Both the position numbers and the translations under genes were made by a program. A stretch of 32,000 nt of DNA, taken from contig NZ_AP021879.1 of NCBI RefSeq assembly GCF_009689005.1, positions 5,209,724 to 5,241,723 on the forward strand, given 5' to 3'. The stretch comes from Desulfosarcina ovata subsp. ovata (GTDB lineage Bacteria; Desulfobacterota; Desulfobacteria; Desulfobacterales; Desulfosarcinaceae). Below the pieces are notes generated by a model. The model saw only the letters and a list, made by a program, of their open reading frames with translations, searched no databases and had not been told where the DNA came from. Within the stretch, counting starts at the first letter, position 1; each line of letters begins with the position of its first letter. Of this stretch, positions 7,666 through 27,744 are shown piece by piece.

Positions 7666-7697
7666 AGCAAATGTTGAGAGGCAAATCAAGTTGATTA

Positions 7698-7718
7698 GAT
7701 AATTAGAGACGTCCCCAA
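7698..7718. repeat. REP-like unit at the 5' flank of RAYT copy 2
   Basis: AGATAATTAGAGACGTCCCCA is identical to 3838..3858 as far as the duplication boundary. Confidence 0.7.
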
Positions 7719-7726
7719 CTGCCCCC

Positions 7727-7818: not shown

Positions 7819-7919
7819 GTGGTACTTGCGACACAGCCACTTAAAACAAAGCAACGCCTTGAAAAACAGTAACATAAAGCGAAACGGGAGGCAGCCTATG
7901 GCGAAAAATAATTAAAATG

Positions 7920-10974: not shown

Positions 10975-11811
10975 TTAAAGCCCATTGTTGGACGATTTAA
11001 TATCGAGTAAATTAATAGTATCCATTTTATCTGGATGAATAATAATAGTTAGCTTTGCTGGATACTTGAATCGCATCTCACTAATCCTGAATGTCCAAAG
11101 CATGATCTTAAGCAAGTCTTCATCACTGATATTTTTGTGTTCTTTAATCCGCGTTATTCCTGATCCAAAAATCGGTACCGAAACGCTTTTTTGTGCGTAG
11201 ACTCTATTTACCCTGTCCCAGAAGTTAATAAGAAAGCTGAGATATTCCGGCATCGTTAACCGAGCTCGGTTTTTATCATCAAATTTCGAAAAAGCTGTTA
11301 AAAGATACTCACCATATACACAAATGGAGCCAATTTCGAAACGAGTCTTTTTCCCGCTCTTTCTCTCCGGATTTTCGCCAACAACATCTTCATCTTCGAA
11401 AGGATAGTTTTCGATATGACGATCAAGATCAACAACCGAGGTGTCAAGATGGCTATTAATGAATATGCCGTTCAGTGAGTTGCTAGATATAATTTTGTCA
11501 TCCACTTGCGTATCTAAATATTCATTAAATGCTATGACTTTAAAATCAGGTTGCTCAAATATATCCCCTTTTTTTATCGTGACATCACTTCCCTCGATTT
11601 TAGTGTGAATCTGCTGCAAGTTGTTAGATCTGACCCACAGAGCCACATAAACGAATAAAAGTAATATTAGAAATATGCCGCCCACCGCGAGCTTGCACTC
11701 TTTGGGTATCTCAACAAATATAAATGTAAGCGATGCCACTACACTTATTACAGAGACAACTTCAAGAAATTGCCTGAAAATTCTCTTATCCAGAAAATTT
11801 ACCTTTGCCAA
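10975..11811 (-). CDS. thsA: Membrane-anchored Macro-like domain protein (type II ThsA-like effector)
   Basis: Two N-terminal hydrophobic helices (VVSVISVVASLTFIFV; LAVGGIFLILLLFVYVALWV), then macro-like landmarks: KKGDIF, KVIAFNEYLDTQVD, PIFGSGITR. The start is TTG, with AGGGAG upstream. A 42-nt gap separates it from the TIR-like gene. Confidence 0.6.
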   Translation of the reverse strand: MAKVNFLDKRIFRQFLEVVSVISVVASLTFIFVEIPKECKLAVGGIFLILLLFVYVALWVRSNNLQQIHTKIEGSDVTIKKGDIFEQPDFKVIAFNEYLDTQVDDKIISSNSLNGIFINSHLDTSVVDLDRHIENYPFEDEDVVGENPERKSGKKTRFEIGSICVYGEYLLTAFSKFDDKNRARLTMPEYLSFLINFWDRVNRVYAQKSVSVPIFGSGITRIKEHKNISDEDLLKIMLWTFRISEMRFKYPAKLTIIIHPDKMDTINLLDIKSSNNGL

Positions 11812-11867
11812 AGGCTTTCTCCCTTAATCTTGCCAGCCTGATCTTGGCTGATACCATTTATACGCAC

Positions 11868-11874
11868 ACCTAAC
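11868..11874 (-). other. Candidate attI core / cassette junction (GTTAGGT)
   Basis: The minus strand reads GTTAGGT, a perfect fit to the integron core GTTRRRY. It sits between the first cassette ORF and the intI promoter. GTATAAC/GTTATAC repeats at 11894, 11958 and 11978 could be accessory binding sites. Confidence 0.35.
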
Positions 11875-11918
11875 AAGTTATTGTATTGTTTCGGTATAAC
11901 TACGAAAGTTAAAAAAGC

Positions 11919-11946
11919 TTGACATGGATTTCAGTTCAAATATAAT
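11919..11946 (+). promoter_or_regulatory. Consensus sigma70-type promoter upstream of intI
   Basis: TTGACA (11919-11924)-16 nt-TATAAT (11941-11946), about 57 nt upstream of ATG 12003. Confidence 0.45.
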
Positions 11947-12002
11947 CAGTTCTAACTGTATAACTCCAAATATGAATGTTATACGGAAAACTGGGATAAC
12001 CC

Positions 12003-13310
12003 ATGAAAGCTATTCCAAACCACCTACAAGCATCCTATGATGCGTATTTGACCGCAAAAGGCATTCCTAAGCAGCACCATTTCAATTATAGAAAGTGGTT
12101 GCGTTATTATCTGGACTTTTGCTCAAAATATGGACACATTCATTCCAACCCGCAAAGCCTGATTCAATTTGGCAATAAGCTGAAGGAAAAGAAACAGACA
12201 GCCTGGCAAATCAGGCAGGCGTCAGATGCAATTGCAATTTATTACGAAATTCAGGAACAAAAACAGGGGCCTCAATATAAATTTCACCAAGTAAACGAAA
12301 AAACAACCCAATTTACAATAAAAAAAGAAACCCCCAAAGCTCAAAACGCCGATTGGACGAACGTCTTCAAAGGTTTGACATCGGAAATAAAGCTAAGGCA
12401 CTACTCACCAAAAACGTTGGCCTCTTATAGCGGTTGGGCGCGAAAACTGCAAAGCTTTGTGAAGAGCAAAGATCCTAAACTGCTGTCATCCCAGGATGTT
12501 AAAAAATTTTTAACCCATCTGGCAGTGGAACGAAATGTATCCGCGTCCAGCCAAAACCAAGCTTTCAATGCACTTCTGTTTCTTTATCGGCACGTTCTTA
12601 AAACCGAATTCGGTGAATTAAAAAATATTCCCAGGGCCAAACGGAAACCCTATATACCTGCCGTATTATCTCGCGAAGAGGTTGACGCGGTTATTGGAAT
12701 GCTCCATGAACCGTTCGATTTAGTTGCCAAGCTGCTCTATGGATGCGGGCTTCGTTTATCTGAATGCCTGCGGCTACGTGTCCAGGACATCAACTTTGAA
12801 AGTGGCGTTCTGACCATCCACGACGGAAAGGGGAAAAAGGATCGTTCTGTTCCTCTTCCGAAGACGATCATTTCGGAACTAAAAATCCAGCTGGAAAAAA
12901 TCGTCGAGTTACACCAAAAGGACCTGGATATCGGATATGGCGGAACATTTCTTGTGGGAAGACTGGATAAGAAATACAAAAATGCAGCTAAAGAATTGGT
13001 GTGGCAGTGGTTTTTCCCAGCGAAAAACTTGACGCTTGTTCCCGATGAAGGCCAATACAGACGATACCACCTGCACCCTACCCACGTTCAAAAAGCCATA
13101 AGAACCGCCGTAAGAACGGCGAAAATTCCCAAGCGCGCATCGGCACACACGTTTCGTCACAGCTATGCAAGCCATTTGCTATTGGCCAACTATGACATCC
13201 GTACCATTCAGAAACTCCTTGGCCACAGCGATGTGCGCACAACCATGATTTACACCCACACAATAGAAAGCCGTACCATTAAAGACGCCGCCAGTCCGCT
13301 TGATTTTTAA
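12003..13310 (+). CDS. intI: Integron integrase (IntI-type tyrosine recombinase) with ~115-aa N-terminal extension
   Basis: It aligns along its length with IntI1 as remembered. Shared blocks include LYGCGLRLSECLRLRVQDI, HTFRHSYASHLL and LGHSDVRTTMIYTH. The IntI-specific insertion is present: LDKKYKNAAKELVWQWFFPAKNLTLVPDEGQYRRYHLHPTHVQ (IntI1: [41 protein letters not shown]). Confidence 0.9.
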   Translation: MKAIPNHLQASYDAYLTAKGIPKQHHFNYRKWLRYYLDFCSKYGHIHSNPQSLIQFGNKLKEKKQTAWQIRQASDAIAIYYEIQEQKQGPQYKFHQVNEKTTQFTIKKETPKAQNADWTNVFKGLTSEIKLRHYSPKTLASYSGWARKLQSFVKSKDPKLLSSQDVKKFLTHLAVERNVSASSQNQAFNALLFLYRHVLKTEFGELKNIPRAKRKPYIPAVLSREEVDAVIGMLHEPFDLVAKLLYGCGLRLSECLRLRVQDINFESGVLTIHDGKGKKDRSVPLPKTIISELKIQLEKIVELHQKDLDIGYGGTFLVGRLDKKYKNAAKELVWQWFFPAKNLTLVPDEGQYRRYHLHPTHVQKAIRTAVRTAKIPKRASAHTFRHSYASHLLLANYDIRTIQKLLGHSDVRTTMIYTHTIESRTIKDAASPLDF

Positions 13311-15990: not shown

Positions 15991-16096
15991 AAATGCCAAA
16001 TGGCAAAATCCAAATGTCAAATGGTGGAATGCTGTCGATTTGAGGTTAAAATCGGCCCGATCCTTCAATTGACATTTGAGCTTTGTCATTTGTCAT
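15991..16096. repeat. Heptad-armed inverted-repeat element E1 (no ORF)
   Basis: Left arm: aaatgcc aaatggc aaaatcc aaatgtc aaatggt. Right arm: ttgacat ttgagct ttgtcat ttgtcat. The inner 12 nt are complementary at 11 of 12 positions. Junction motifs are GGTGG (16023) and CCTTCA (16062). A central hairpin reads CGATTT..AAATCG. Confidence 0.8.
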
Positions 16097-16104
16097 TGCC
16101 GGCG

Positions 16105-16623
16105 TCAATTACGCCGGCCCAGGCTTTTGACATACGCAATCACCCGCCACCGGTCATCCGGGGCGATGGTGGTGGCCAGGGGTGGCTGGCGGCCGCCGGG
16201 CAGGCCGAAACTGATCTCCTTGAACAGTGTTCCCCCGGCCATGGTCTGGACCTTGGCGTCCCGCAGGTCCCTGGGTTTCGGGGCGAAACTCTGGCCGACG
16301 GTGCCATAGCCGTCAACGTTTTTTCCGTGGCAGTGGACGCAGTAGTACCCATAAGCGGTTTTTCCGGTGGCGATCACCGCCGGATCGGTCAGGTCAAAGG
16401 GTGGCTTGAGATCCTCGGCCGCCGCGGCATGGAAAAAGGCTTCCCCGCCGGATACCGGAACGCTGCCCGCCGCCATGACCGGGATGGGATGCTCGTGGGG
16501 CTTGATGGCCGGCGTTTTCCACATGCGGCCGGCGGGCATCAGTTCATCATAGGCGGTGATCACGCCCCAGGCGGCCAGGGCCACCGTACAGACAATCAGC
16601 ATGACTGCGAGTATGCGACCCAT
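16105..16623 (-). CDS. actE: Membrane-anchored monoheme cytochrome c (ActE-like)
   Basis: N-terminal hydrophobic anchor and a single CVHCH heme motif. The size and the context beside ACIII/cbb3 genes fit ActE. Confidence 0.65.
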   Translation of the reverse strand: MGRILAVMLIVCTVALAAWGVITAYDELMPAGRMWKTPAIKPHEHPIPVMAAGSVPVSGGEAFFHAAAAEDLKPPFDLTDPAVIATGKTAYGYYCVHCHGKNVDGYGTVGQSFAPKPRDLRDAKVQTMAGGTLFKEISFGLPGGRQPPLATTIAPDDRWRVIAYVKSLGRRN

Positions 16624-16854
16624 TTATTCTCCTCCGGCCCCTCTGACATGCTGGGGATTGGGCATTCGCTGGTAAACGGCATAGGGTGAGGATGCCGGCA
16701 CATCCTTGACCGGGCGGTAGGCCCAGGTGGGCTGGCCCATGTCCGAGACCACATAGAAGGACAGGAACCCCTTGAACAGGATAATGCCCAGCATGACACC
16801 AATCCAGATCCAGGTCCTGAAAATCGATTCGTGTTGGTGCGGGTTGTTGTTCAT
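16624..16854 (-). CDS. Small single-TM membrane protein, function unknown
   Basis: One hydrophobic helix (WIWIGVMLGIILFKGFLSFYVV). It is packed tightly between neighbouring genes, with 0-1 nt gaps on both sides. Confidence 0.5.
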   Translation of the reverse strand: MNNNPHQHESIFRTWIWIGVMLGIILFKGFLSFYVVSDMGQPTWAYRPVKDVPASSPYAVYQRMPNPQHVRGAGGE

Positions 16855-16855
16855 T

Positions 16856-17131
16856 TCAGATTTTCACTCCCAGTACACCGTGCATGACGATGTAGAAAAA
16901 GCCCCAGATGAAGGTGCCGGCGATGATCAGTATCATCACCAGGGGATAGGGGGCATTGCGCTCTTCGATACCGTCGGCGTAGCGGCCGGTGATGCGTTTC
17001 TTGCTGGCCTCGCTGTCCCTGCCATGCAAATGGGCAAAGGCCAGCGCCACACCGAAAATGACCATGAAAATCAGGGTGGGAAAGAGCCAGGCCATGGTAT
17101 GCTGAAAACTGAGCAGTTGGAAAAATCGCAT
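16856..17131 (-). CDS. cbb3 oxidase FixP/CcoP N-terminal-domain-like membrane protein
   Basis: DGIEERNAPYPLVMILIIAGTFIWGFFYIV resembles the DGI.E..NPLP-W...Y motif of the CcoP N-terminal anchor. It has two TM segments and no heme motif. Confidence 0.5.
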   Translation of the reverse strand: MRFFQLLSFQHTMAWLFPTLIFMVIFGVALAFAHLHGRDSEASKKRITGRYADGIEERNAPYPLVMILIIAGTFIWGFFYIVMHGVLGVKI

Positions 17132-17140
17132 GCTGGATCC

Positions 17141-17425
17141 TCACTGTTTGCTGAAATAGAGGGCGAATGCCAGAACCGCCCCCGTTGCCCCCAATCCGGC
17201 GATTGCCAGGACAAAAAGACCGTAGATTTCGATCCGACTGAACCGGGTCGCCTTGACCGGCGGTGCATCGCCATCGTCCTTTAAGGGCAGATAGCGGGCC
17301 CGCTGCTGATCGCCAAACTGGCCGGTCTTGAACGCCCAGTAAAAGACCGCCAGGCTGATGACCAGGCCGATGGTGATGTAGGCGATGAAGTAGGGGTAGT
17401 ACATAATGGTAATGTCAAATTTCAA
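17141..17425 (-). CDS. ccoS: CcoS/FixS-family cbb3 oxidase maturation protein
   Basis: LAVFYWAFKTGQFGDQQRARYLPLKDD matches the CcoS signature (F.WA.KSGQFDD). The listed TTG start (17425) lies inside repeat E2, so ATG 17404 is the more likely start. Confidence 0.7.
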   Translation of the reverse strand: MKFDITIMYYPYFIAYITIGLVISLAVFYWAFKTGQFGDQQRARYLPLKDDGDAPPVKATRFSRIEIYGLFVLAIAGLGATGAVLAFALYFSKQ

Positions 17426-17512
17426 ATGACAAATGTCAAATGGTGGTTGACTCCCTTTTTAAATGTCAAATTTCAAATGACAAGTGTCAAATGGCGGTTG
17501 ACTCCTTTTTTT
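17411..17512. repeat. Element E2, left arm: two tandem 51-nt units of heptad repeats
   Basis: Unit 1: aatgtca aatttca aatgaca aatgtca aatggtg gttgactccc ttttta. Unit 2: aatgtca aatttca aatgaca agtgtca aatggcg gttgactcc tttttt. Segment 17423-17441 is complementary to 17906-17924 at 18 of 19 positions. Confidence 0.85.
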
Positions 17513-17871
17513 TATTTTTTCCGGCACGACATGGCGATCGATGAAAAGATCAGCGTCAGTTCGTGGGCTTCCTGCCAAAGCGGGCGAATCGTTTCCTTCT
17601 CGTTCGGGTTCGCCTTGGCAATCATTCTCAACCAGTGTTTGGTCTCCTTGGCCTCTTTACGGCATAGGTCGATTTTGTATTTAAAGTCTTTTTTCGACCC
17701 GGCACTGTCTGCTTCCATATAGTTGGCTCCGACACTGGTCCCGGATCTGACGATTTGCCTGATAAGTACATCATTTACGCTATTGTCGGGAAGGGATTGG
17801 GCGAGTTCAATGATCCGCTCGCCAAAAATCGCCGTCCGTTCCTCCAAATTAAATTCAACCGTATCCACCAA
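17512..17871 (-). CDS. Four-helix-bundle protein (23S rRNA intervening-sequence protein / Avd family)
   Basis: 119 aa; the pattern LPDNSVNDVLIRQIVRSGTSVGANYMEADSAGSKKDFKYKIDLCRKEAKETKHWLRM is typical of this family. It has a TTG/GTG start and lies between the inverted arms of E2. Confidence 0.85.
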   Translation of the reverse strand: MVDTVEFNLEERTAIFGERIIELAQSLPDNSVNDVLIRQIVRSGTSVGANYMEADSAGSKKDFKYKIDLCRKEAKETKHWLRMIAKANPNEKETIRPLWQEAHELTLIFSSIAMSCRKK

Positions 17872-17900
17872 AATAAATCATTCTTAAAAAGGATAGAATA

Positions 17901-17936
17901 CCTTCAATTGACATTTGTCATTTGGCCTTTGACATT
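17901..17936. repeat. Element E2, right arm
   Basis: CCTTCA a ttgacat ttgtcat ttggcct ttgacat t. The first 17 nt (ccttcaattgacatttg) are identical to the E1 right arm. Confidence 0.85.
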
Positions 17937-17940
17937 TCGC

Positions 17941-18876
17941 TTACGGCTCATACGCCGCGTCAATCCCCTTAGGTTCCATATTCGCATCGCTCTCATTAAT
18001 AAAATTTACCGCCACATAGTTGCCCACGTCCCAGATTTTCTCCGACTCCAGCTCGCGCTTGAAGTAGGGCATGGCCGTGCCGGTAATGCCGTTCATGATT
18101 TGGTAGTAGAGGATTCCTCCGCTGATTTCACGGTTCTTCAGAATCGTGAAGTTGAGCGGCGGCGGGTAGATGTGCGGCTGGGCCGGTCCCATACCGTCAC
18201 CCACCGGGCCGTGGCAGCCCAAGCAGAAATCCTGGTAGATCTTGTGGCCGCGGGCCAGCCCCGCTTCGCTGGTGGGGTAGGGGTTGGGTACGTCCCGCCA
18301 CCCCTGGGGAATGTTCTCGCTGAGCCACTGTACATTGGCGTCCGGCCCTGCCTCGTAGGCCTTGATGGATTCGGCCTTCCAGAAGGCCTGGCGTTTCATG
18401 CGGTGGTCGGCGTTTTTCATGCCCAGGCTCTGCACGTAGCGGATCAGCTGGTTCATGCCGGTATCGCCCAAGAATTCAAAGGGCGGCATGATCGAGAGCG
18501 GCCGGGTATAGCGGGGATTGACAAAGTGGGCCACGTGCCAGTCGTCGGGGTGCTCGCCACCGTCCTGGGAAAGGTCCGGGCCGGTGCGCTGGGAACCCAG
18601 CAGGATCGGGTAGTCCTCCACGTAGTCGCCGGCCTGGGCGATGCGTTCGGCGCCCAGCCCCCAGTCGATGGTGCGGATGGACTGGCTGTGGCAGTAGACG
18701 CAGCCGTTGGCGATGTAAAGCTTCCGGCCGGCGGCCTCATCCACGGAGCGCTGGCGGAAGATCTCCGATGGCGCGGTCTGGCTGGTGTGCACATAAGGCA
18801 GCAGGATGACCACGAAGACGATGGTGGCCAGGATCAGGAGCGATCCGGCGACTACGGCAAGGGGAGTCATTTTCAT
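17941..18876 (-). CDS. ccoO: cbb3-type cytochrome c oxidase subunit II (CcoO) fused to a second c-type heme domain (CcoP-like)
   Basis: N-terminal TM segment, then the CcoO pattern GCVYCHSQ...GSQRTGPDL...WHVAHFVNPR...MPPF. A second heme motif CLGCHG lies in the C-terminal half. There is a 4-nt overlap with ccoN. Confidence 0.85.
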   Translation of the reverse strand: MKMTPLAVVAGSLLILATIVFVVILLPYVHTSQTAPSEIFRQRSVDEAAGRKLYIANGCVYCHSQSIRTIDWGLGAERIAQAGDYVEDYPILLGSQRTGPDLSQDGGEHPDDWHVAHFVNPRYTRPLSIMPPFEFLGDTGMNQLIRYVQSLGMKNADHRMKRQAFWKAESIKAYEAGPDANVQWLSENIPQGWRDVPNPYPTSEAGLARGHKIYQDFCLGCHGPVGDGMGPAQPHIYPPPLNFTILKNREISGGILYYQIMNGITGTAMPYFKRELESEKIWDVGNYVAVNFINESDANMEPKGIDAAYEP

Positions 18877-20240
18877 GATGGCGCTCCGGATTTTCCGAAC
18901 AGTGAGCGGACGATATTATAAAACCCCAGCACCGCACTGGAGAAGATCATCAATCCCAGGCCGGCGCGCACCACGTAATACACGTGGATTTCCGGCAGGA
19001 CGCGGTAGACGGTTTCGCCGTTGAGCCAGGCGTTGCCCTGGATCAGTCCGGCGATGGTCAGCACCACGGTGAAGCCGACCATGCCGATCAGCACCATCCA
19101 GTACTGGAAGTCGGCCAGGAAACGGCTGAAGAGCGGTTTGCCCGACATCTTGGGCACGGTGTAGTACAGCCCGCCCAGGGCGATCATACCGGCGAAACCA
19201 AGCACGCCGATGTGGGCATGGGCCACCACCCAGTTGTTGAAGTGGGTCACGCGCTGGACATCGGGCAGGGCCATGAGGGAACCCTGGATGCTGACGAAAA
19301 AGTACATGATCGTTCCGGTGAAGATGAACTTGGCACCGATGTCGGCGTGGATTTCGCCCAGCCGGCCCCGGGCCGTGTACCAGATGTTGATCAGAAAGGC
19401 CATGACCGGGATGACCATGGCGATGCTGTCCACGATGGCCACCACCTTGAGCCAGGTCGGCACCGGCACCTGGAGCAGGTGATGGGTGCCGATATGGGTG
19501 TAGACCACGATCAGGGCCCAGAATCCCAGAAGGGAGAGGGTGTGGCTGTAAAGTGGTGCCCGGCAGGCGCGCGGGATCACGTAATAGGCGACCGCAATGG
19601 AAAACGGCGTCAGCAGCAGACCGAAAACGTTGTGGCCGTAGAACCAGAGCAGGATGGCATCGGGAATGCCCACCAGGGCGCCGCTGTCCGGCCTCCAGAC
19701 CACGTTTCCCAGGGCGAAGGTGCTGAAGGTGAGCACCACGCCGGCGAGCATATACCATACCGACACGTATAGAATCGGCTCCGTGCGGTTCTTGACGGTC
19801 ATGATGAAATTGATGAACACCAGGCCGAAGGCGGCGAGGACCATGACGTCCAGGTGCCAGATCAATTCGGCGTACTCGCGCCCCTGGGTCATGCCGGCGG
19901 CCAGGCTGGCCACGGCGCCGATCAGGGCGAGGTTCCACAAAATGACCGTCACCACGCCCAACCGCTCGCTGTAGAGCCGGGTGCGCAGCAACCTGGGAAT
20001 GAAGTAGAAGGCGGCCGAGAGCAGGCCCGGGGTGACGAACCCGAACAGCACCAGGTTGACATGGGTGGGCCGCACGCGCCCGAAGACAATGCCGCCCATG
20101 TTGGCGGTCAGGTCCGGGGCGACCAGTTCGGTGGCTCCCAACAGCCCGTAAAAGGTGGCCACCATCATCCAGAAGGCGGATGTCAGGGCAAACCCCTTGG
20201 CGGTGGTGTTGGATTCTATGATTTTGGTGTCGGTGGACAA
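18873..20240 (-). CDS. ccoN: cbb3-type cytochrome c oxidase subunit I
   Basis: Polytopic heme-copper oxidase sequence with WFYGHNVFGL, IGTHHL and VAHAHIGVLGF histidine ligand blocks. TTG start with AAGGAG 6 nt upstream. Confidence 0.9.
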   Translation of the reverse strand: MSTDTKIIESNTTAKGFALTSAFWMMVATFYGLLGATELVAPDLTANMGGIVFGRVRPTHVNLVLFGFVTPGLLSAAFYFIPRLLRTRLYSERLGVVTVILWNLALIGAVASLAAGMTQGREYAELIWHLDVMVLAAFGLVFINFIMTVKNRTEPILYVSVWYMLAGVVLTFSTFALGNVVWRPDSGALVGIPDAILLWFYGHNVFGLLLTPFSIAVAYYVIPRACRAPLYSHTLSLLGFWALIVVYTHIGTHHLLQVPVPTWLKVVAIVDSIAMVIPVMAFLINIWYTARGRLGEIHADIGAKFIFTGTIMYFFVSIQGSLMALPDVQRVTHFNNWVVAHAHIGVLGFAGMIALGGLYYTVPKMSGKPLFSRFLADFQYWMVLIGMVGFTVVLTIAGLIQGNAWLNGETVYRVLPEIHVYYVVRAGLGLMIFSSAVLGFYNIVRSLFGKSGAPS

Positions 20241-20260
20241 GAGCGACTCCTTGCAAGTTA

Positions 20261-20405
20261 AATTCTCAATTATGAATTTTAAATTTTGAATGATTGGATG
20301 GTGCCGATTTTATAATTGATCGAATTCCTCAATTCAAAATTCATAATTCAACATTTTCGCGTTCCCAATCGGAAGAATTCCTTCATTCAAAATTTAAAAT
20401 TAAAA
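20261..20405. repeat. Heptad-armed inverted-repeat element E3
   Basis: Left arm: aattctc aattatg aatttta aattttg aatgatt. Segment 20276-20293 is perfectly complementary to 20383-20400 (18 nt). Segment 20268-20280 is also complementary to 20336-20348. Junction motifs are GGTGCC (20300) and CCTTCA (20380). Confidence 0.8.
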
Positions 20406-20413
20406 ATTCCTAA

Positions 20414-21043
20414 TTAATTGTGACACGCCAACCAGCACCCAATATTGACATCCAAGGACCGGTGGCACTCGATACAAAATCCCATTTTGAACCGTTCTCC
20501 CTTCAACCGGTCCATGTCGCGGACCTCGCCGTGGCACGATTCACAGGCGATATCCCGTTTGATGTGCCGTTCGTGGTTGAAAACCACATGCTCGGCCAAT
20601 GTAAACACCTTGACCCATGGCGTGGGCGTGTCCGTGTTGAAATAGTCGTGCTCCTTCTGGATTTCCGGGTGGTTGGCGATGATGTAATTATGGCAGAAGA
20701 GGCATTTCTCCACGGGCGGCATTCCCGGATGAATCGATTTGTCCACATACGAGTGGCAGAAGCGGCAGTCGATGGCCTTGTGGCCGGCGTGCAGCCGGTG
20801 ACTGAAGGGAATCGGCTGGGCCGCCCCGATGCGCGTGGCCGGCGACGCATAGAAAAAGAAGAGAAATCCCAGTACCAGCATGACGCATGCGCCCACCCAG
20901 AACATGGGGCCGCGGTTTTCCCAGACGTGGACCAGGGTTTCGCCGAAAGCAGTGAAAAAGCGCATGGGCCGTCCCCGGGTGCCGATGAGAATAACAACCC
21001 CCACTAGGGTGAGCAGGATAAAGGTGGTAATCAGAATTTCCAT
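20414..21043 (-). CDS. actA: Membrane-anchored multiheme cytochrome c (ActA-like)
   Basis: Heme motifs CRFCH, CLFCH, CESCH and CIECH, plus a terminal CWLACH (CX3CH spacing as read). It has an N-terminal TM region and sits directly after the actF-like gene (6-nt gap). Confidence 0.7.
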   Translation of the reverse strand: MEILITTFILLTLVGVVILIGTRGRPMRFFTAFGETLVHVWENRGPMFWVGACVMLVLGFLFFFYASPATRIGAAQPIPFSHRLHAGHKAIDCRFCHSYVDKSIHPGMPPVEKCLFCHNYIIANHPEIQKEHDYFNTDTPTPWVKVFTLAEHVVFNHERHIKRDIACESCHGEVRDMDRLKGERFKMGFCIECHRSLDVNIGCWLACHN

Positions 21044-21049
21044 TTTTTC

Positions 21050-22267
21050 CTAACCGGCCTCGACCGTCAGTCGGTCAGGCTCTCCGTTTTCCAGCAGTTC
21101 CGGTAGTTTTTTAAAGTACGCGGTGACGGCAGCGGCCAGCAACCCGAAAAAGCCGATTGCCACGGCCGCTTCCACCCATCCCAGGGGCAGATGCTCGGCA
21201 TGGTGATGGAAGGCCGGGCCGAGCAGCAGGTAGTGCTCCAGCCAGATGCCGCTCATCACCAGGAGGCAGATCACTGTCATGGCCCTGGGACGGGTTTTGA
21301 TGCGGCGATTGATCAGGATAATGAACGGTGCAATGAAACAGCCGATGAAGATCGTCCAGGCCAGGGTGTTCCATGGCGTGGCCATGGTGCGTTCGATGAT
21401 ATAACTGGTCTCTTCGGGAATGTTGCCGTACCAGATGACCACGAACTGGGCGTAGAAGAAATCGGCCCACACCAGGCAGAAGGCGAAGAAGAGCTTGCCG
21501 ATGTCGTGGAACTGGTTTTCCTGGACCTGGTAGCTGTTTCTTTCACTCATGTGCAGGCTCGCGCTGAGGACGATCAGGGCCCCGAAACCGATGTACACGG
21601 CCTTGACAAAGCTGTACGCGCCGAAGAGGGTCGAGTACCAGTGCGGGTCGGCGGCCATGACCAGATCGTAGCCGATCAGGGAGAGGACAATGGCGAAGGC
21701 CAGCAGGTAGAGAATGGCGAAAACGGTGGTGCGTCCGGCCATCCGTTGTTCATCCACTGTTTTCCTGGCCCAGCGGTCCAGCAGCCGCCGGCCCAGGGGG
21801 CCGCGCGCCCCGCGCGCAGTCAAGGTGAAGTAGAGCCGGTGGTAGAGAAAAACCAGCCCTAAGCCGTAGAGCAGGCACAGGCCGATAAAATCGCGGCCGA
21901 AGAGAAACGGCAGGTTGAGCCACACCTCCTTGCCGTGCAGATCCTCGTGCAGCCAGGGGAAAACATACTGGCGGCCCAGGAACAGAATCAGAAACAATGC
22001 CAGGGAAACCGGGAAAAAGGCGGCAAAGGATTCGGCCACATCGGCCAGGGGACCGCTCCAGCGCGCCTTGACCGTGTGCATCAGGGCCGAGAAGAGGACC
22101 GCCCCCTGGGCAATGGCCGAGAAGAAGAGAAAGTTGAGCAGGTAGGCCTGCCAGGCCCGGGCCGTGTCGCCAACAATGGCCACGGCGATGAAGATCAGCG
22201 CCCCGGCGGCTGCGAGGCCATAGAAGATCCTCATGAGCGAAGGGGGGTGGTTGTGGTTGTCTATCAT
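21050..22267 (-). CDS. actF: NrfD-like polytopic membrane subunit (ActF-like)
   Basis: Hydrophobic multi-TM protein, paralogous in character to the ActC-like gene. The start was moved to ATG 22267 (GGGAAGGGAA SD), because the listed upstream 24 codons run into repeat E4. Confidence 0.65.
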   Translation of the reverse strand: MIDNHNHPPSLMRIFYGLAAAGALIFIAVAIVGDTARAWQAYLLNFLFFSAIAQGAVLFSALMHTVKARWSGPLADVAESFAAFFPVSLALFLILFLGRQYVFPWLHEDLHGKEVWLNLPFLFGRDFIGLCLLYGLGLVFLYHRLYFTLTARGARGPLGRRLLDRWARKTVDEQRMAGRTTVFAILYLLAFAIVLSLIGYDLVMAADPHWYSTLFGAYSFVKAVYIGFGALIVLSASLHMSERNSYQVQENQFHDIGKLFFAFCLVWADFFYAQFVVIWYGNIPEETSYIIERTMATPWNTLAWTIFIGCFIAPFIILINRRIKTRPRAMTVICLLVMSGIWLEHYLLLGPAFHHHAEHLPLGWVEAAVAIGFFGLLAAAVTAYFKKLPELLENGEPDRLTVEAG

Positions 22268-22290
22268 GGTTCCCTTCCCGTTGTTCTTGA

Positions 22291-22431
22291 CGGATTCGTA
22301 AAAAACCCGATATCGGCGCCTGCGCGTATCCTTCGTCACTGCGGAGTACGCTCAGTACGCTGCCTACGGCACCCGCGATAGCGGTATTCTCAGGATTCGC
22401 AAGCCTTGATCTTGGGCTTTTTACGAATCCG
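22291..22431. repeat. Inverted-repeat element E4 (non-heptad arms)
   Basis: cggattcgtaaaaaacccgatat (22291-22313) pairs with atcttgggctttttacgaatccg (22409-22431) at about 19 of 23 positions. The right arm includes the last codons and stop of actD. Junction motifs are GGCGCC (22315) and CCTTGA (22404). Internal direct repeat: AGTACGCT x2. Confidence 0.7.
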
Positions 22432-22957
22432 TCTGAACGACGACTTTTGTCTCGGCGCCCTTTTCTTCGAAAAACCGGGTCAAGCGTTCTTTCTCGTCAC
22501 TGGTGCAGCGGGCCAGCACCCCGAAGCGGTCGCCGGAGAAGCGTTCGTCGTAACCGGCGACGGCCTTGAAGCGTGGCAGCCGGGCCTGGGAGATCAATCC
22601 CAGGATATTTCCGAAAACGGCGAAGAGGATCGTGAATTCGAACCCCACGATGAAAAACGGCACCAGGGCCACCACCGGCTTGCCGCTGACGATCAGGGAC
22701 CAGCGTGTGGCCGTGAAGGCGGCCAGAAGAAAGCCGGCAAAAAAACCAATGATGCCGCCGGCCAGGGTGAACCAGCCCACGCGACTTTTGGGCAGCTCCA
22801 GGGCCTGTTCGATGGCATGGCTGGGAATCGGGCTGTGCACCCGTTCGATGGTCCAGGGGGTTTCGTGCAGCCCGTCAATGGCGACGGCCGCCCCGTTCTC
22901 ACTGGCGAAAATGCCCATGATGGAAACCGTGTCAGCCGGCATGGGAATCTCCTTCAT
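22421..22957 (-). CDS. actD: ACIII subunit ActD-like (DUF3341-type membrane protein)
   Basis: A soluble N-terminal part, two TM helices (GWFTLAGGIIGFFAGFLLAAF; VPFFIVGFEFTILFAVFGNILG), then a C-terminal soluble part. It overlaps the actC-like stop by 26 nt. Confidence 0.7.
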   Translation of the reverse strand: MKEIPMPADTVSIMGIFASENGAAVAIDGLHETPWTIERVHSPIPSHAIEQALELPKSRVGWFTLAGGIIGFFAGFLLAAFTATRWSLIVSGKPVVALVPFFIVGFEFTILFAVFGNILGLISQARLPRFKAVAGYDERFSGDRFGVLARCTSDEKERLTRFFEEKGAETKVVVQTDS

Positions 22958-24251
22958 GCAGGGTTTCTTTCATCTCGGTCATGGAGACCGACGGCATGTG
23001 CTTGACGAAAAGCACGAAGAGGAAAAAGAAAAGGCAGAAGCTGCCGATCATGATGCCGAATTCGACCCAGCTGGGAGAGTAGAGCCCCCAGGCGTGGGGC
23101 AGGAAATCGTGGGCCACCGACCCGATGATGATCACGAAACGCTCGTACCACATCCCCACGTTGACCAGGAGCGAGATGATGAAGAGCACGCGGATGTTGG
23201 TGCGGATTTTTTTGAAGAACAGCAGCAGCGGGATGAGCACGTTGCAGCTGACCATGATCCAGTACTCCAGGGAATAATCGCCGAAGGCCCGCCAGCGGAA
23301 GGACTCCATCTCAATCGGGTTGTGGCTGTACCAGGCGATGAAGATCTCGGTGCCGTAGGCGAAGCCGACGATCAGGCCGGTGAAGATGATGGTTTTGGCC
23401 ACGCTCTCCAGTACCCGGTCGGTGATGATGTTTTCGTAGCGGAAGATGACGCGCAGGGGGATCATCAGGGTGACCACCATGGCCAGACCCGAGTGGATCG
23501 CACCGGCCACGAAGTAAGGCGCGAAGATGGTGGTGTGCCAGCCCGGCACCACGCTCAGGGCAAAGTCCCAGGAGACCACGCTGTGCACCGAGATGACCAG
23601 GGGCGTGGCCAGGGCGGCGAAGAAAAGGTAACCGCGGGTGTAGTGGCGCCAGATCTCGAATTCACCGGTCCAGCCCAGGGAGAGGACGGAGAAGATTTTG
23701 CGCCGCACCCCCGTTGCATGGTCGCGGATGATGGCCAGATCCGGCAACATGCCGGTGTACCAGAAGAGGCTGCTCACCGTCAGGTAGGTGGAGATGGCCA
23801 CCACGTCGAACATCAGGGGGGACTGGAAGTTGGGCCACAGGGTGCGCTGGTTGGGCACCGGCAGCATGTAGTAGACCATCCAGACCCGGCCCAGGTGGAT
23901 GAACGGGTAGAGACCGGCGGTGCAGACGGCGAAAACGGTCATGGTTTCGGCGGCCCGGGCGATGGGGTTGCGCCAGCCGGCCCGGAACAGATGCAGGATG
24001 GCCGAGATCAGGGTTCCCGAGTGGGCGATTCCTACCCAGAAGACGAAGTTGATCAGGTAGGTTCCCCAGTGCACGGGATTGTTCTGGCCGCCCACGCCGA
24101 TGCCCACCAGAATCTGAACCATCCAGCAGGCGCCGCCCATGAGCACGCCGGCGAAGAGCAGGGACACGACCACCCAGTAGCTGCGCCGGGGCGGCAGCAG
24201 GGTGTCGAGGACCGTGTCGTCGATGGATTGGTAAGTCAGTGTCTGTTCCAT
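22932..24251 (-). CDS. actC: NrfD/PsrC-family quinol-interacting membrane subunit (ActC-like)
   Basis: Polytopic; WGTYLINFVFWVGIAHSGTLISAILHL and further TM blocks are typical of NrfD-family subunits. It lies directly downstream of actB. Confidence 0.8.
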   Translation of the reverse strand: MEQTLTYQSIDDTVLDTLLPPRRSYWVVVSLLFAGVLMGGACWMVQILVGIGVGGQNNPVHWGTYLINFVFWVGIAHSGTLISAILHLFRAGWRNPIARAAETMTVFAVCTAGLYPFIHLGRVWMVYYMLPVPNQRTLWPNFQSPLMFDVVAISTYLTVSSLFWYTGMLPDLAIIRDHATGVRRKIFSVLSLGWTGEFEIWRHYTRGYLFFAALATPLVISVHSVVSWDFALSVVPGWHTTIFAPYFVAGAIHSGLAMVVTLMIPLRVIFRYENIITDRVLESVAKTIIFTGLIVGFAYGTEIFIAWYSHNPIEMESFRWRAFGDYSLEYWIMVSCNVLIPLLLFFKKIRTNIRVLFIISLLVNVGMWYERFVIIIGSVAHDFLPHAWGLYSPSWVEFGIMIGSFCLFFFLFVLFVKHMPSVSMTEMKETLHEGDSHAG

Positions 24252-24322
24252 ATTTATCTTTCCACTACCGATGGTATTGCCAGAAGTTCTCCTGTCCGTA
24301 CATGCTGTCTTTTAAATAATCG

Positions 24323-24491
24323 AGAATACAGAATACAGAATACAGAATACAGAATACAGAATACAGAAGTCAGAAGTCAGAAGTCAGAAGTCAGAAGGCG
24401 CGGAACCGCCTTTGGCGGGTCTTTTATGTAACCTGAATGCAATATACGGTTGTTTCTTCTGGATTCTGTCTCCTGACTTCTGAATTCTTTT
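24323..24491. repeat. Heptad-armed inverted-repeat element E5
   Basis: Left arm: (AGAATAC)x6 (AGAAGTC)x4 AGAAGGC (24323-24399). Right arm: ttctgga ttctgtc tcctgac ttctgaa ttctttt (24457-24491), imperfectly complementary. The centre carries a CCGCC ttt GGCGG hairpin. Junction motifs are GGCGCGG (24397) and TTCTTC (24454). Confidence 0.85.
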
Positions 24492-24546
24492 TTTATTTTT
24501 TTCGCCCTTGTCGGGCACGGTCGATTGGGCGAAAGATTTTTCGCCC

Positions 24547-27492
24547 CTACACCTCCTGTACCACCTTCTTCAGATAAATCACCGCCGGCTTGGTGTTCAG
24601 GTAACCCATCACCTGATAGGCCCGCGGATCCTTGATCATTCGGCTGACCCGGCTGTCCGGATCCATGAGGCTGCCGAAGGTCAGGGCGCCGGTGGGGCAG
24701 GTCTGGGCGCAGGCCGGCACCACCTCACCGTCACGGATGGCCCGTTTCTCGTTCTTGGCCGCGTTGTGGGCCCGTTTGATGCGCTGGACGCAGAAGGAGC
24801 ATTTCTCCATCACGCCCTTGCTGCGCACGGTTACCCAGGGGTTGAGCTGCATGTTCAGCGGTTCGGGCCATTTCCAGTCGAACCAGTTGAAGCGCCGGAC
24901 CTTGTAGGGGCAGTTCTGGGCGCAGAAGCGCGTGCCGATGCAGCGGTTGTAGATCTGGTTGTTGAGCCCCTCCTTGGAGTGATGGGGCGCGTAGACCGGG
25001 CAGACCGCCTCGCAGGGCGCGTTGTCGCAATGCTGGCACATCATGGGCAGGAAGGTCATGCGTGCCATGTCCGCCGGGTCATGGTAGCGCTGGATCTGCA
25101 GCCAGGCCATCTCGCGGCCTTCGATGATGCGCTGTTCACCGACGATGCCGATGTTGTTCTCCGCGTAGCACGCCGCCACGCAGGCGCTGCAGCCGATGCA
25201 GCGGTCCACATCCACGATCATGGCCCAGCGATAGCCGGCATGATCGTGGGGCGGATAGATATCCCGTTTGGGATCGTATCCCTCCGGCGTGGGCGGGGTC
25301 AGCGGAAAGGTGTCCATGGTCAGGGCGGGCTCGCCGTGCGCGTCCCGGTGGCCGATTTCATCCATGGCCACGGTGGGCGCGATTTTGCGGTGCAGGGCCG
25401 TTCGGCTGCCCGAGGTGATGGCCAGTTGGTCATGCTGCCGGCGCTTTTCCAGGCTGGACAGAACGGTGGCAAAAGCCGGTGCCCCGGCGTCGGGGTCGGT
25501 CGCCGCAGCGAGAAGCGCCAGGGGGTTGACACCCTGGCCGCTGGCCCAACGGCCGAAGCCGGTATGTCCCTGGCCGGTGGGGACCACGATGGCCTGTGGA
25601 AACAGACCGGCATACCCGTAGGCCGGCGCCTCGATCGTACCGGCCTCGGTTTTTAGGGTTACCCGGTCACCGTCCTTGATGCCGCCCGCCGCCATGGTTT
25701 CCGGGTGGATCAGTACTGGGGTTTGCCAGGGAATCTGGGTCAGGGGATCCGGGGTCTCGATCAACCAGGGACGATTGGCCCCGCGACCGTCGAAGAAGCG
25801 GATCGACGGCGGCGCCAGAAGGGTCAGTGTGTTGTACGGGGCCGGCAGATCCGCCAGGCAGCGTTTCAGGGTGGCGGCGGCTTTCAGGTTGGGTTGGGGT
25901 GTGTTTGCCGCGGATGCGGTGTCGGCAAACCGACCGCCCTGCTGAACGGTTTTCAGCCAGGCCGCGGTCGTGGACTTGGCCTCGTCGGCCAGGACCGTTC
26001 GGGTCACCAGGGCCTGGTAATTCTCCGCCGGCCGCTTTTCAGCAGGCAAAAGGTCCAGGAAGAGGTCGCCGATGGCCGGCGCCCGGTTGATGCGCCCCAT
26101 GGCCGGCTGCAGGGTGGCCAGACTGGCCGTGTTGCTCTCATAGGCGTCCCAGGTCTCCAGGGCCATCTGCACGGGGATGATCAGGTCGGCCTGAGCTGTG
26201 GTCTCGTTGAGAAAATTATCAAAGGCGACCACAAACCGTTTTCTCTCACCCAGGATTTTGGCAATGCGTCCGCCGTCGGGAAGGGTGAACACCGGATTGA
26301 TGTTGTTAAGCAAAACCAGTTTCACATCGTTTTTCTGCAGGTTGTCGAAAAAATCATTTACCGCAGCGCGCCGGTCGGCGATCTCCACACGGTGGCGGCT
26401 GGCGAAATCGAACAGCGGGAGGGCGGGGTCCAGCGCCAAATTGAGAAAAAGGGCGGCCAGCTCCGTGGCTACGGCCGCCTTGCCGCTGCTTGCGGCGCCA
26501 GCACCCAGGACCAGCGGCCGCCTGGCCGCGATCAGCTGCCGGGCGATGGCGGTAAGGTCCTTCGGACTGACCCCGGAAATTTTCGCCACCGCCTCGGGCG
26601 TGTGGTCGCCGGTCAGGTCCGCCAGGGCGCTGAGCAGCTTGCCGTCGATCCGCCGTCCGTTGGCGTCGCCCATCACAATCTGGATCAACCCCATGATCAC
26701 GGCGGGTTCACTGCCCGGTCGGCAGGCGATCCAGCGATCGGCATTGGCACCGGTGAGGGACTGGAAGGGACTCACCTGGAGAAAGCGCCCCTTGTCATCT
26801 TTTTTGTAGCCGTGCATGGCCTTGAATTTGCGCGCGTATTCCACCGGCGAGAGCCAGGTTTCCAGAAAATCGGCGCCAAAGCCGACCAGCACATCGGCCT
26901 GGTCGAGGTGCAGTGACGGCAGGATGGGGGCGCCGCAGAGTTCGGTGTGGGCGAACTTGAGGGCTTCATAGGCCAGGGGCTCGAAAACCACCGGGGCGGC
27001 GGCGCCGGCATGCTGCATCACCGTGGCAAACAGATCCAACTGGGTCCGGCCCACGGTTTCGGTGAGCATGGCGACCCGGCCGTCGCCCTTGTCGATCGCC
27101 GCTCGAAACTGTTTAGCGACTAACTCGGCGGCTTTGTAGTAAGGCAGCGATTCCCAGCCGTCCTTGGTTTTCAGTTGGGGCAGGGTCAGCCGGTCAGGAT
27201 GGTAGACCCCCTGCAGGGCCGCCTGGCCGCGGATGCATAGGGTTCCCCGGTTGACCGGGTGCAGGGGATTGCCCTCCAGCTTGATCACCCGTCCTTCGCG
27301 GTTCTTGGCCAGTACGCCGCAGCCGGCCGGGCATTCGCGGCAGGTGGAGGCATACCAGTTGGCCCGTCCGGTGACCATGTCCTCGGTGGCCTGGACCATG
27401 GTGAACAGGTTGTCTTCCGTTTTCGCGGAGCAGCCGGCGGCAAAAGCGACGCTGCCCATGGAGGTAATCTTGAGAAATGTTCGACGATTCAT
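24547..27492 (-). CDS. actB: ACIII subunit ActB-like: Tat-exported molybdopterin-oxidoreductase-like domain fused to a 4Fe-4S ferredoxin domain
   Basis: Twin-arginine signal MNRRTFLKITSMG. N-terminal Cys cluster CRECPAGCGVL...C. C-terminal ferredoxin motifs CIGCSACVAAC, CQHCDNAPCEAVCP, CIGTRFCAQNCP and PACAQTCP. Confidence 0.9.
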   Translation of the reverse strand: MNRRTFLKITSMGSVAFAAGCSAKTEDNLFTMVQATEDMVTGRANWYASTCRECPAGCGVLAKNREGRVIKLEGNPLHPVNRGTLCIRGQAALQGVYHPDRLTLPQLKTKDGWESLPYYKAAELVAKQFRAAIDKGDGRVAMLTETVGRTQLDLFATVMQHAGAAAPVVFEPLAYEALKFAHTELCGAPILPSLHLDQADVLVGFGADFLETWLSPVEYARKFKAMHGYKKDDKGRFLQVSPFQSLTGANADRWIACRPGSEPAVIMGLIQIVMGDANGRRIDGKLLSALADLTGDHTPEAVAKISGVSPKDLTAIARQLIAARRPLVLGAGAASSGKAAVATELAALFLNLALDPALPLFDFASRHRVEIADRRAAVNDFFDNLQKNDVKLVLLNNINPVFTLPDGGRIAKILGERKRFVVAFDNFLNETTAQADLIIPVQMALETWDAYESNTASLATLQPAMGRINRAPAIGDLFLDLLPAEKRPAENYQALVTRTVLADEAKSTTAAWLKTVQQGGRFADTASAANTPQPNLKAAATLKRCLADLPAPYNTLTLLAPPSIRFFDGRGANRPWLIETPDPLTQIPWQTPVLIHPETMAAGGIKDGDRVTLKTEAGTIEAPAYGYAGLFPQAIVVPTGQGHTGFGRWASGQGVNPLALLAAATDPDAGAPAFATVLSSLEKRRQHDQLAITSGSRTALHRKIAPTVAMDEIGHRDAHGEPALTMDTFPLTPPTPEGYDPKRDIYPPHDHAGYRWAMIVDVDRCIGCSACVAACYAENNIGIVGEQRIIEGREMAWLQIQRYHDPADMARMTFLPMMCQHCDNAPCEAVCPVYAPHHSKEGLNNQIYNRCIGTRFCAQNCPYKVRRFNWFDWKWPEPLNMQLNPWVTVRSKGVMEKCSFCVQRIKRAHNAAKNEKRAIRDGEVVPACAQTCPTGALTFGSLMDPDSRVSRMIKDPRAYQVMGYLNTKPAVIYLKKVVQEV

Positions 27493-27744
27493 GCGTGATG
27501 CCCGTTTGTGCCAGGTTGACTATGCTGCTGGCATGGATGGATGCCTGTTTTGTTACCGATGGACTGCTCGGTTGTCGAGAGAAAATCAGGCCGCCGTAAT
27601 GGTTGCGGCGTTGTCATTGGTGATGTCGGGATTTGGATCGATCTGAAGCAAGATTACCGTTAAAATAGCAAAATGCCGGAATAGTTGTCAATCTCCATAA
27701 TTTTGATGCATGGACCATAACTGTGTGAGGACGGGCCCGGGGCG

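Follow-up and report, generated by a model that had tools for sequence, protein, structure and literature searches.

The 32,000-nt stretch of Desulfosarcina ovata subsp. ovata considered here (contig NZ_AP021879.1, positions 5,209,724 to 5,241,723; hereafter the window) carries on its minus strand, from ~27.5 kb down to 13.5 kb, a single series of respiratory genes whose larger gaps are occupied by five inverted-repeat elements, E1 to E5 (Table 1). The series begins with genes for a fused molybdopterin/FeS subunit (ActB-like), an NrfD-like ActC, ActD, a membrane subunit, a multihaem cytochrome, and CcoN (COX1), continues with CcoO (FixO), the open reading frame (ORF) of E2, a FixS-like gene (the ccoS of the initial annotation), and a FixP_N-like gene, and closes on a small ORF, a cytochrome c gene, and one for a CcoI-like P-type ATPase. 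The initial annotation, made from the letters of the window alone, had placed inverted repeats in the actE|ccoI (E1), ccoO|ccoS (E2), actA|ccoN (E3), actD|actF (E4), and actB|actC (E5) gaps and had described all other junctions as overlapping or shorter than 10 nt; an inverted-repeat search recovered the repeats in all five gaps, and the other junctions measure 0-9 nt or overlap. The best promoter-like site of the region, a consensus match only, lies upstream of actB, which suggests that all five elements may be carried within one transcription unit starting there.

Table 1. Positions of the elements and of other features in the window (position 1 is the first letter of the window)
Feature	Position	Strand	Details
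Promoter-like site upstream of actB	27662-27691	-	TTGACA, 18-nt spacer, TATTTT; 10/12 consensus matches, TG extension
Remnant of older GTAGGGGCGAAAAATCTTTCGCCC-type palindrome	24502-24550	-	beside E5; not of the heptad family
E5, heptad hairpin	24313-24501	-	plus strand AGAATAC x6.6, CAGAAGT x4.9
E5 inverted repeat	24353-24397 / 24456-24493		
E5 partner array	24456-24488		shorter, degenerate
E4, heptad-free hairpin of a different dispersed family	22289-22433	-	20-nt terminal inverted repeats GACGGATTCGTAAAAAACCC
E4 inverted repeat	22289-22324 / 22398-22433		
actD stop codon	22421-22423	-	with the last codons inside the E4 terminal inverted repeat (22421-22433)
E3, ORF-less hairpin, AATTNNN type	20259-20418	-	three heptad arrays: 20259-20295, 20323-20358, 20379-20418
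E3 inverted repeat	20261-20309 / 20367-20415		
E2 5' arm (operon strand)	17900-17940	-	AAATGTC AAAGGCC AAATGAC AAATGTC AATTGAAGG
E2 cargo, four-helix-bundle protein gene	17512-17868	-	118 aa; GTG start at 17868
E2 3' arm, two tandem 51-nt copies	17408-17511	-	Tandem Repeats Finder: period 51, 2.0 copies, 94% matches
E2 inverted repeat	17404-17463 / 17884-17943		
E1, ORF-less hairpin, AAATGNC type	15991-16098	-	5' arm 16061-16098, loop 16029-16060, 3' arm 15991-16028
E1 inverted repeat	15992-16028 / 16061-16097		
ThsA Macro-domain gene (Thoeris-like) and phage-type integrase	10975-13310		between mobile-element cluster and operon
Group II intron	8375-10243	+	Rfam RF02001 domain match 8375-8562; reverse transcriptase/maturase ORF 8903-10243
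Y1_Tnp + DnaA_C genes (two)	2777-3940; 6637-7875	-	IS200-like; paralogous
Tandem repeats adjoining the Y1_Tnp genes	2740-2790; 6551-6642		27-32-nt units; 32-nt unit at 6551-6642

Heptads make up the arms of four of the five elements. Tandem Repeats Finder assigns period 7 to E1, E2, E3, and E5, in line with the heptad runs originally described, and a detector that required 15 or more matches out of 21 at a distance of 7, and a better fit to period 7 than to periods 1-6, found nine arrays across the 32 kb, all inside the gaps of these four elements (0.17 in shuffles) and each of the nine with an inverted partner scoring at least 16; the heptad-hairpin observation is real and far from chance. 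Minus-strand RNA of every gap folds into a long hairpin, as had been anticipated, with z-scores against shuffles of -2.9 (E1), -4.0 (E2), -2.35 (E3), -6.6 (E4), and -3.9 (E5). The view of the elements as one family of five did not survive, E4 being free of heptads, as the initial annotation also had it, and a member of a separate dispersed hairpin repeat, and because E4 belongs to this other family, the inner junction motifs ascribed to all five are confined to E1, E2, and E3 and, loosely, E5; the identical 17-nt inner ends of E1 and E2 are as quoted. Three exclusions made at the outset also stand: the repeats are head-to-tail heptads and inverted pairs, with none of the regularly spaced repeats and unique spacers of a CRISPR array; no intrinsic-terminator-like site was found on the minus strand in any of the five gaps; and the heptad hairpins lack the GTAG/CTAC end of repetitive extragenic palindromic (REP) sequences, the Y1_Tnp genes of the window adjoining a different, 32-nt repeat. 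At gathering score, Rfam returned no family in the elements (chance-level miRNA matches only) and no rRNA in the window, the flanks of the elements being protein-coding cistrons.

E2 is a complete cassette, in which a heptad array, a gene of the PF05635 four-helix-bundle family, and an inverted heptad array follow one another. The encoded protein, whose longest ORF opens one codon before the GTG start (TTG at 17871), matches Pfam PF05635 (23S_rRNA_IVP, the protein of 23S rRNA intervening sequences; 58.7 bits, E 7.5e-16, cut-off 33.8) and NCBIfam TIGR02436 (four helix bundle protein; 76.8 bits, E 1.4e-21, cut-off 24), a profile of it and its relatives matches the five-chain entry 2RLD of the PDB, and the closest protein on record comes from Desulfosarcina ovata (99% identity). 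Both copies of the tandem 3' arm, whose repeated unit takes in a trailer of ~15 nt, are complementary to the single 5' arm, which has two alternative partners because of this duplication; the minimum free energy fold pairs the arms over ~35 nt. Beside E2, where the neighbours are ccoO and the FixS-like gene, neither a reverse transcriptase nor a template/variable repeat pair was found, and the sole reverse transcriptase of the window is the group II intron maturase, ~7.6 kb away. PADLOC, which holds no model for the four-helix-bundle protein, gave no match for the E2 product, and a search of a phage collection with this protein gave two weak matches only. Use of the shared TGAAGG junction as the ribosome-binding site of the enclosed gene fits two related cassettes (L085 and L038, ~8 nt before the ATG) and was rejected for E2, whose GTG lies ~45 nt away; an origin of the motif as such a site is likely.

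E1, E3, and E5 contain no ORF and are probably ORF-less versions of the E2-type cassette. The arms of E3 match by BLAST the arms of gene-carrying AATTTTN-type cassettes, and two of its arrays (20323-20358 and 20379-20418) are each complementary to the third, so that mutually exclusive hairpins could form. The operon was compared with four orthologous versions: that of D. cetonica (L001-L005), that of L171, a metagenomic contig of 696 kb, and those of the short contigs L172 and L173. In L171 the E3 counterpart is built of the same AATTNNN heptads, with a few bases as its whole loop: the 5' arm, followed by the leader GAAGGTATTCTATC that E2 also has, joins the 3' arm almost directly. This ortholog and the shared leader suggest that ORF-less copies derive from cassettes by internal deletion.

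The ORF-less form is also dispersed outside the operon. The 17-mer CAAATGTCAATTGAAGG, common to E1 and E2 in both species, was scanned over one genome per species and matched ~85 stretches, where ~69 are expected by chance (596 Gb, both strands); ~35 of the matches fall in Desulfosarcina (at least 20 in D. cetonica, the others in D. variabilis and uncultured Desulfosarcina), and nearly all of these are hairpins of ~105 nt. In this E1-type layout, a 5' arm of three to four AATGNCA units followed by ATTGAAGG is separated by a loop of 25-35 nt from a 3' arm in which CCACC or CCTTC precedes the inverted heptads, and a few copies are solo arms. The motif CAAATGTCAATTGAAGG likewise precedes four-helix-bundle genes in an Uhrbacteria metagenome-assembled genome (MAG; L038) and in MAG DeMMO3_36, where the gene-carrying cassette with AAATGTC arms (L085) is found alongside ORF-less copies with the same arms (L053 and L023). 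A subfamily of the E1-type copies of D. cetonica (L006, L007, L012, L019, L027, L079, and L088) has an additional ~80 nt conserved upstream and ~50 nt downstream, which makes a unit of ~220 nt. The initial annotation had offered, as an alternative to a role in the transcript, that the elements are footprints of a hairpin-type mobile element with E2 as its ORF-bearing member. This alternative is the better of its two readings: a PF05635 gene lies within the arms of E2, the same arms occur without an ORF at more than 20 D. cetonica sites, they flank the same gene family in unrelated lineages, and E4 and E5 are missing from orthologous operons.

The architecture is general within the clade of the PF05635 family that was sampled. 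Metagenomic contigs scanned with an alignment of the protein gave 80 loci (540 of 600 pattern-matched stretches confirmed), and in the flanks inspected nearly every gene has a heptad array reaching up to its start codon and an inverted array directly after its stop codon. For the 71 genes with 100 nt of flank to either side, 7 came out as the best of the periods from 4 to 12 nt in 48 upstream and 51 downstream flanks, and arm complementarity reached a score of at least 15 in 31 loci, as against 1 of 385 control positions of the same loci. The RNA duplex between the 5' and 3' flanks falls below -20 kcal/mol in 57 of 72 loci, with 23-63 paired bases (mostly 30-55) that usually take in the ATG and the stop codon. 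By a motif classifier, 45 loci are AAATGNC-like, 25 AATTTTN, two AATGACG, and three TTCTAAT, and the class tracks the protein tree, being the same in 62/74 nearest neighbours. The gene is almost always on the strand of its neighbours (57/61 upstream, 52/54 downstream), across gaps of ~10-120 nt. The number of heptads per arm ranges from ~3 to 15; a correspondence of five heptads per arm with a protein pentamer, suggested by the ~5 units of E1, E2, and E3, was rejected on account of this range. In many AAATGNC-type cassettes (among them L092, L097, L104, L109, and L114), the start ATG is the ATG of the last heptad (...CAAAGCTCAAATG), so that an ATG is available in each of the three frames along successive heptads. 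Six loci (L109, L114, L122, L138, L133, and L116) have the cassette between the same upstream gene end (...YRQQYCGC.YSEKERF...) and the same downstream gene, with differing numbers of heptads and in some cases no upstream array, which looks like array-length variation at one orthologous site. No cassette inside an rRNA gene was found among the loci retrieved, whose flanks were protein-coding, although no Rfam search was aimed at this.

Among annotated plasmids, those of cyanobacteria account for most occurrences of the gene. The copies inspected, from Nostoc, Aulosira, Dolichospermum, Planktothrix, Pseudanabaena, Bernardetia, Monoglobus, and Chlorohelix, have repeat arms in 9/9 cases and period-7-type arrays in 8/9. 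Upstream and downstream units are, respectively, AATTCAA x4 and TTTTGAA x4-5 in Nostoc flagelliforme and Aulosira, AATTCGT x4 and TTACGAA x4 in Nostoc C052 and Dolichospermum, AATCCCC with AATCGTA and CGATTTA-type units in Planktothrix, TTAGTGA x15 and TCACTAA-type units in Bernardetia, and AATTAGG-type and CCTAATT-type units in Monoglobus; the repeats of Chlorohelix are more complex, those of Pseudanabaena have a longer period, and a chromosomal copy from Bacteroidota (L059) has ACGATTT units. On the Planktothrix agardhii plasmid (L175, 1330-2030), further arrays of AATCCCC and AATCGTA units lie downstream of the cassette, and AATCCCC is a rotation of CCCCAAT, the classical STRR1 unit of the repeats known as STRR (short tandemly repeated repetitive). 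Plasmid cassettes (L175, L177, L178, L181, L182, and L174) are often located within defence or restriction operons, at drmD|pglX, csx2|cas1, DUF1156|HEPN, hsdS|hsdR, and helicase|methyltransferase junctions or upstream of a cytosine methyltransferase.

The reading preferred here, with a probability of roughly 60%, is that E1, E2, E3, and E5 are cassettes of the intervening sequence (IVS) type in an mRNA operon, one of them gene-carrying and the others ORF-less derivatives; the cassette as a class would be a widespread and little-studied passenger related to rRNA IVSs. With no evident promoter of its own and in the orientation of its neighbours, the cassette would be transcribed by read-through from the host operon, and on the transcript its arms would pair into a stem of 30-50 bp that, by computed duplexes, usually encloses the start and stop codons in the wider family. 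By analogy with rRNA IVSs, the stem is probably a substrate of RNase III, cleavage by which would sever the polycistronic transcript there and set free the RNA of the cassette, and the encoded protein, predicted to be pentameric and Avd-like, may speculatively bind the heptad stem. Internal deletion would give rise to the ORF-less copies, which would build up as a repeat dispersed among intergenic regions, and the heptad arrays would expand and contract by slippage.

Several results weigh against this reading. No mobility enzyme was found in or beside the cassettes, the full-length relative of the heptad hairpins encoding the four-helix-bundle protein and no transposase, and no target-site duplication is definable, as filled and empty sites are too diverged; mobility is thus deduced only from copy number, presence/absence differences, and spread across phyla. 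ORF-less copies are found in intergenic regions of every type (12 sense, 8 antisense, 5 convergent, and 4 divergent relative to neighbours, as called by a codon-usage program whose training set was the window plus L001). G-U versus C-A strand asymmetry is absent, the sense strand being more stable in 10/25 ORF-less copies and 42/72 cassettes (Wilcoxon p = 0.29), so RNA-level constraint is not demonstrated and RNA-level selection is not claimed. RNase III processing and segmental stabilisation, roles first offered in the initial annotation, are plausible. RNAalifold on 23 paralogous hairpins gave 19 pairs, 0 of them compensatory, with the heptad cores AATGNCA / TGNCATT as the invariant parts and the variable position often mismatched, and the compensatory pairs among orthologs (two in E1 and one in E2, beside several broken pairs) are too few to carry weight. 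Across the family, the arms stay complementary while the heptad itself changes, a covariation for which a copying mechanism could be responsible just as selection could. The strong purifying selection on E2 agrees no less well with a module that serves the host than with a selfish passenger, and the cassette reading leaves without account the 7-nt period, the dN/dS of ~0.1 of E2 at one locus in five lineages, and the mode of movement. A more ambitious version, which can be put forward only tentatively, would make the heptad arrays and the bracketed gene one self-contained module, in which the pentameric protein recognises its own 7-nt repeats, as stem or single strands, and controls processing, translation, or propagation of the cassette and its ORF-less copies. 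Such a module would constitute a new class of intercistronic element across phyla, with rRNA IVSs as a special case, and would account for the heptanucleotide repeats of cyanobacteria (STRR), Xanthomonas, and Bacteroidota.

The orthologous operons bear on the alternative that the hairpins are host-selected intercistronic stem-loops, which block 3' exonucleases, direct endonucleolytic cuts, or uncouple translation and thereby set the amounts of the alternative complex III (ACIII), cbb3, and maturation segments, likeness to a repeat family being secondary. The comparison, proposed in the initial annotation, divided the elements: the E1, E2, and E3 junctions are occupied in the orthologs examined, as this alternative would have it, and E4 and E5 are missing from L001 and L171. 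The E2 gene lies between ccoO and the FixS-like gene, at the boundary of structural (ccoNO) and maturation genes, in five of five lineages, with near-invariant arms and a single 3' arm copy in each of the four orthologs. Between the window and L001, the E2 arms and E1 hairpin are ~90-94% identical, as against ~70% at the four-fold degenerate sites of ten genes, and among the five operons the E2 gene has a dN/dS of 0.06-0.11 at a dS of 0.8-1.7, similar to ccoO. Gaps devoid of canonical terminators and a similar proposal for the STRR hairpins between hupS and hupL (PMC2670836) also speak for host selection. The record of the ORF-less elements is less favourable: E1 is well preserved in L173 and in L001 (~92% identity across the hairpin), has diverged strongly in L172, and in L171 is truncated by loss of its loop; the E3 position of D. 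cetonica has a hairpin of other heptads (GTGTTAA / ACTTAAC); the E5 heptads, like E4, are confined to the lineage of the window; hairpins of the E1 type occur elsewhere in antisense, convergent, and divergent intergenic settings; and strand asymmetry is absent. Selection of the hairpins by the host is considered unlikely as their primary explanation. Given the constraint on the E2 arms and gene and the presence/absence differences among ORF-less copies, the gene-carrying cassette of this operon is therefore old and under purifying selection, and the ORF-less copies are labile and turn over.

Somewhat more doubtful is the proposal that the heptads are primarily binding sites for the four-helix-bundle protein, one site each, such that the cassette would be autoregulated and the ORF-less hairpins would be targets in trans, forming a small regulon at the post-transcriptional or DNA level. 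The conserved heptad core of the paralogs, the tracking of protein phylogeny by heptad type, the abutment of the arrays on the start and stop codons, the strong purifying selection on the protein, and the nature of its relatives, basic pentameric barrels that contact RNA stem-loops (bioRxiv 10.1101/2023.10.23.563531), would all fit. However, plain co-inheritance or host composition could account for heptad class varying with the protein, no gene cognate to the heptad types of E3 and E5 lies in the window, and arms of ~3 to 15 heptads offer no simple match to a pentamer.

The window also has two paralogous genes that combine Y1_Tnp with a DnaA_C helix-turn-helix and look like REP-associated tyrosine transposases (RAYT-like), each adjoining a tandem repeat, and the D. 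cetonica operon is followed downstream by a similar Y1_Tnp gene (L001 16543-17595). These genes, the dispersal of the copies with presence/absence differences, and the equal folding of both strands might suggest that the elements act at the DNA level, as extruded hairpins or cruciforms that such a transposase mobilises in trans in the manner of REPs, with the gene as incidental cargo, but this is very improbable, as the window Y1 genes adjoin a different, 32-nt repeat instead of heptad hairpins, the almost invariable co-orientation of gene-carrying cassettes with their neighbours is not predicted by a DNA-only mechanism, and cassettes occur in many lineages with no such transposase seen nearby, though no survey was made for it.

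Other inserts have also affected the operon. E4, to judge by its copies, is a separate, unrelated family resembling MITEs (miniature transposable elements with inverted repeats) that landed in the same operon: copies of 125-150 nt with 20-nt terminal inverted repeats occur in D. cetonica (L061, L039, L017, and L088, with weaker matches in L050 and L032), and at the actD junction of L001 and L171, where E4 is absent, the gap is 13 and 16 nt. One arm of E4 takes in the final codons of actD together with its stop codon, and the insertion therefore rewrote the ActD C-terminus; ActD has 178 aa in the window versus 173 in L001 and 172 in L171. In the gap corresponding to E5, L001 instead has a complete palindrome, GTAGGGGCGAAAAATCTTTCGCCC ... 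GGGCGAAAGATTTTTCGCCCCTAC, REP-like with a GTAG end (3579-3643), whose window copy, carrying GTAGGGG, breaks off exactly at the start of E5. The actF|actA junction, 6 nt in the window, is 79-98 nt in D. cetonica (L001 6742-6820) and L171 (6794-6891), where CCTAAAC-like repeats form another labile insert. Downstream of ccoI, the ThsA gene and phage-type integrase make the region look like an island, with the group II intron lying beyond them on the plus strand.

Among known systems, the cassette most resembles the IVSs of 23S rRNA, selfish elements whose complementary ends form a stem (28 bp in Coxiella) and which are excised by RNase III, some of them carrying an ORF for S23p, a protein without known function (PMC4990558); PF05635 has itself been called uncharacterised (bioRxiv 10.1101/2024.02.27.582315). 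Both the rRNA IVSs (Leptospira, Coxiella, Brucella, and Xanthomonas) and the cassette have a PF05635-family ORF enclosed by inverted repeats at the ends, which pair into a long stem, both are transcribed together with a host gene (presumably so for the cassette) and lack a promoter or mobility gene of their own, and both are sporadically distributed, which suggests horizontal spread. E2 has the long closing stem and, alone among the five elements, the PF05635/S23p ORF; its host, however, is a protein-coding operon rather than helix 9, 25, or 45 of 23S rRNA, its arms are heptad arrays, which are unmentioned for IVSs (PMC4990558), ORF-less copies of the cassette are dispersed through the genome, and RNase III cleavage, established for IVSs, is for the cassette proposed by analogy. 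A second relative is Avd of diversity-generating retroelements, described as a basic barrel of the four-helix-bundle type, pentameric and resembling S23 proteins, which contacts RNA stem-loops (bioRxiv 10.1101/2023.10.23.563531). Avd belongs to the superfamily of the E2 protein and acts on RNA with pairing across an insert (bioRxiv 10.1101/2023.10.23.563531), whereas E2 has no adjacent reverse transcriptase or template/variable repeat pair. MITEs, REPs, and bacterial interspersed mosaic elements are likewise short, dispersed, intergenic hairpin repeats whose presence varies between relatives; E4 fits them best, and terminal inverted repeats with many dispersed copies are found in both the AAATGNC and E4 families, but the heptad hairpins differ in their tandem-repeat arms, in having no transposase-encoding full-length relative, and in lacking the GTAG/CTAC signature.

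Heptanucleotide-repeat hairpins form the other class of close relatives, 7-nt units being present in E1, E2, E3, and E5, though not in E4, together with an intergenic convergent partner. For STRRs, Mazel et al. reportedly gave in 1990 the consensus CCCCA(A/G)T and relatives of it. The window units AAATGNC, AATTNNN, AGAATAC, and AGAAGTC match neither this consensus nor the GGGAATC and TAACTGA repeats of other bacteria. The 7-bp repeats of cyanobacterial STRRs can form hairpins, as between hupS and hupL, and have been proposed to act in transcript stability or translational coupling (PMC2670836); like the heptad hairpins, they are intergenic, also within operons, and the function of both is unassigned (PMC2670836). 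The window hairpins differ in their Desulfobacterota host and their heptads, and the part of the STRR literature seen describes no associated gene, but STRR-like arrays (AATCCCC, AATTCAA, and AATTCGT) bracket four-helix-bundle genes on Planktothrix and Nostoc plasmids. Xanthomonas genomes each contain 70-75 convergent pairs of GGGAATC arrays, stem-loop-capable and of unassigned role (Rehm et al. 2015, PMC4692102); these and the GGGGA(C/T)T repeats of Nostoc resemble the heptad hairpins as intergenic heptamers with a conserved site between the same genes and a variable array length, but are G-rich, have been discussed as G-quadruplex formers, and have no reported enclosed gene (PMC4692102). TAACTGA arrays (Beggiatoaceae, cyanobacteria, and Bacteroidetes) are also intergenic, end a few nucleotides from a start codon, and are patchily distributed across phyla, but are almost all direct (one inverted case in 170 sets), again with no enclosed gene reported (MacGregor 2015, PMC4679880).

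The initial annotation's statement that no described element class has this architecture consequently does not hold, being preceded by the STRR hairpins (PMC2670836), the Xanthomonas heptamer pairs (PMC4692102), and the IVSs with an ORF in their stem (PMC4990558). No published link between heptamer arrays and a four-helix-bundle gene was found in the literature, which, as coverage of subscription journals was incomplete, is absence of evidence only. Long perfect stems within operons should be considered when transcript boundaries are read, and four-helix-bundle genes inside operons, such as those for restriction-modification, CRISPR, and BREX/DISARM on plasmids, probably ride along as passengers and are not components of those systems. 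The comparison as a whole suggests that the cassette class joins two known classes, the rRNA IVSs and the heptanucleotide-repeat hairpins; this join, and its occurrence in a respiratory operon in a sulfate-reducing bacterium, seem to be new and suggest that two decades-old puzzles, the roles of ORF-bearing rRNA IVSs with their S23p and of the heptanucleotide repeats of cyanobacteria and Xanthomonas, are faces of one cassette.

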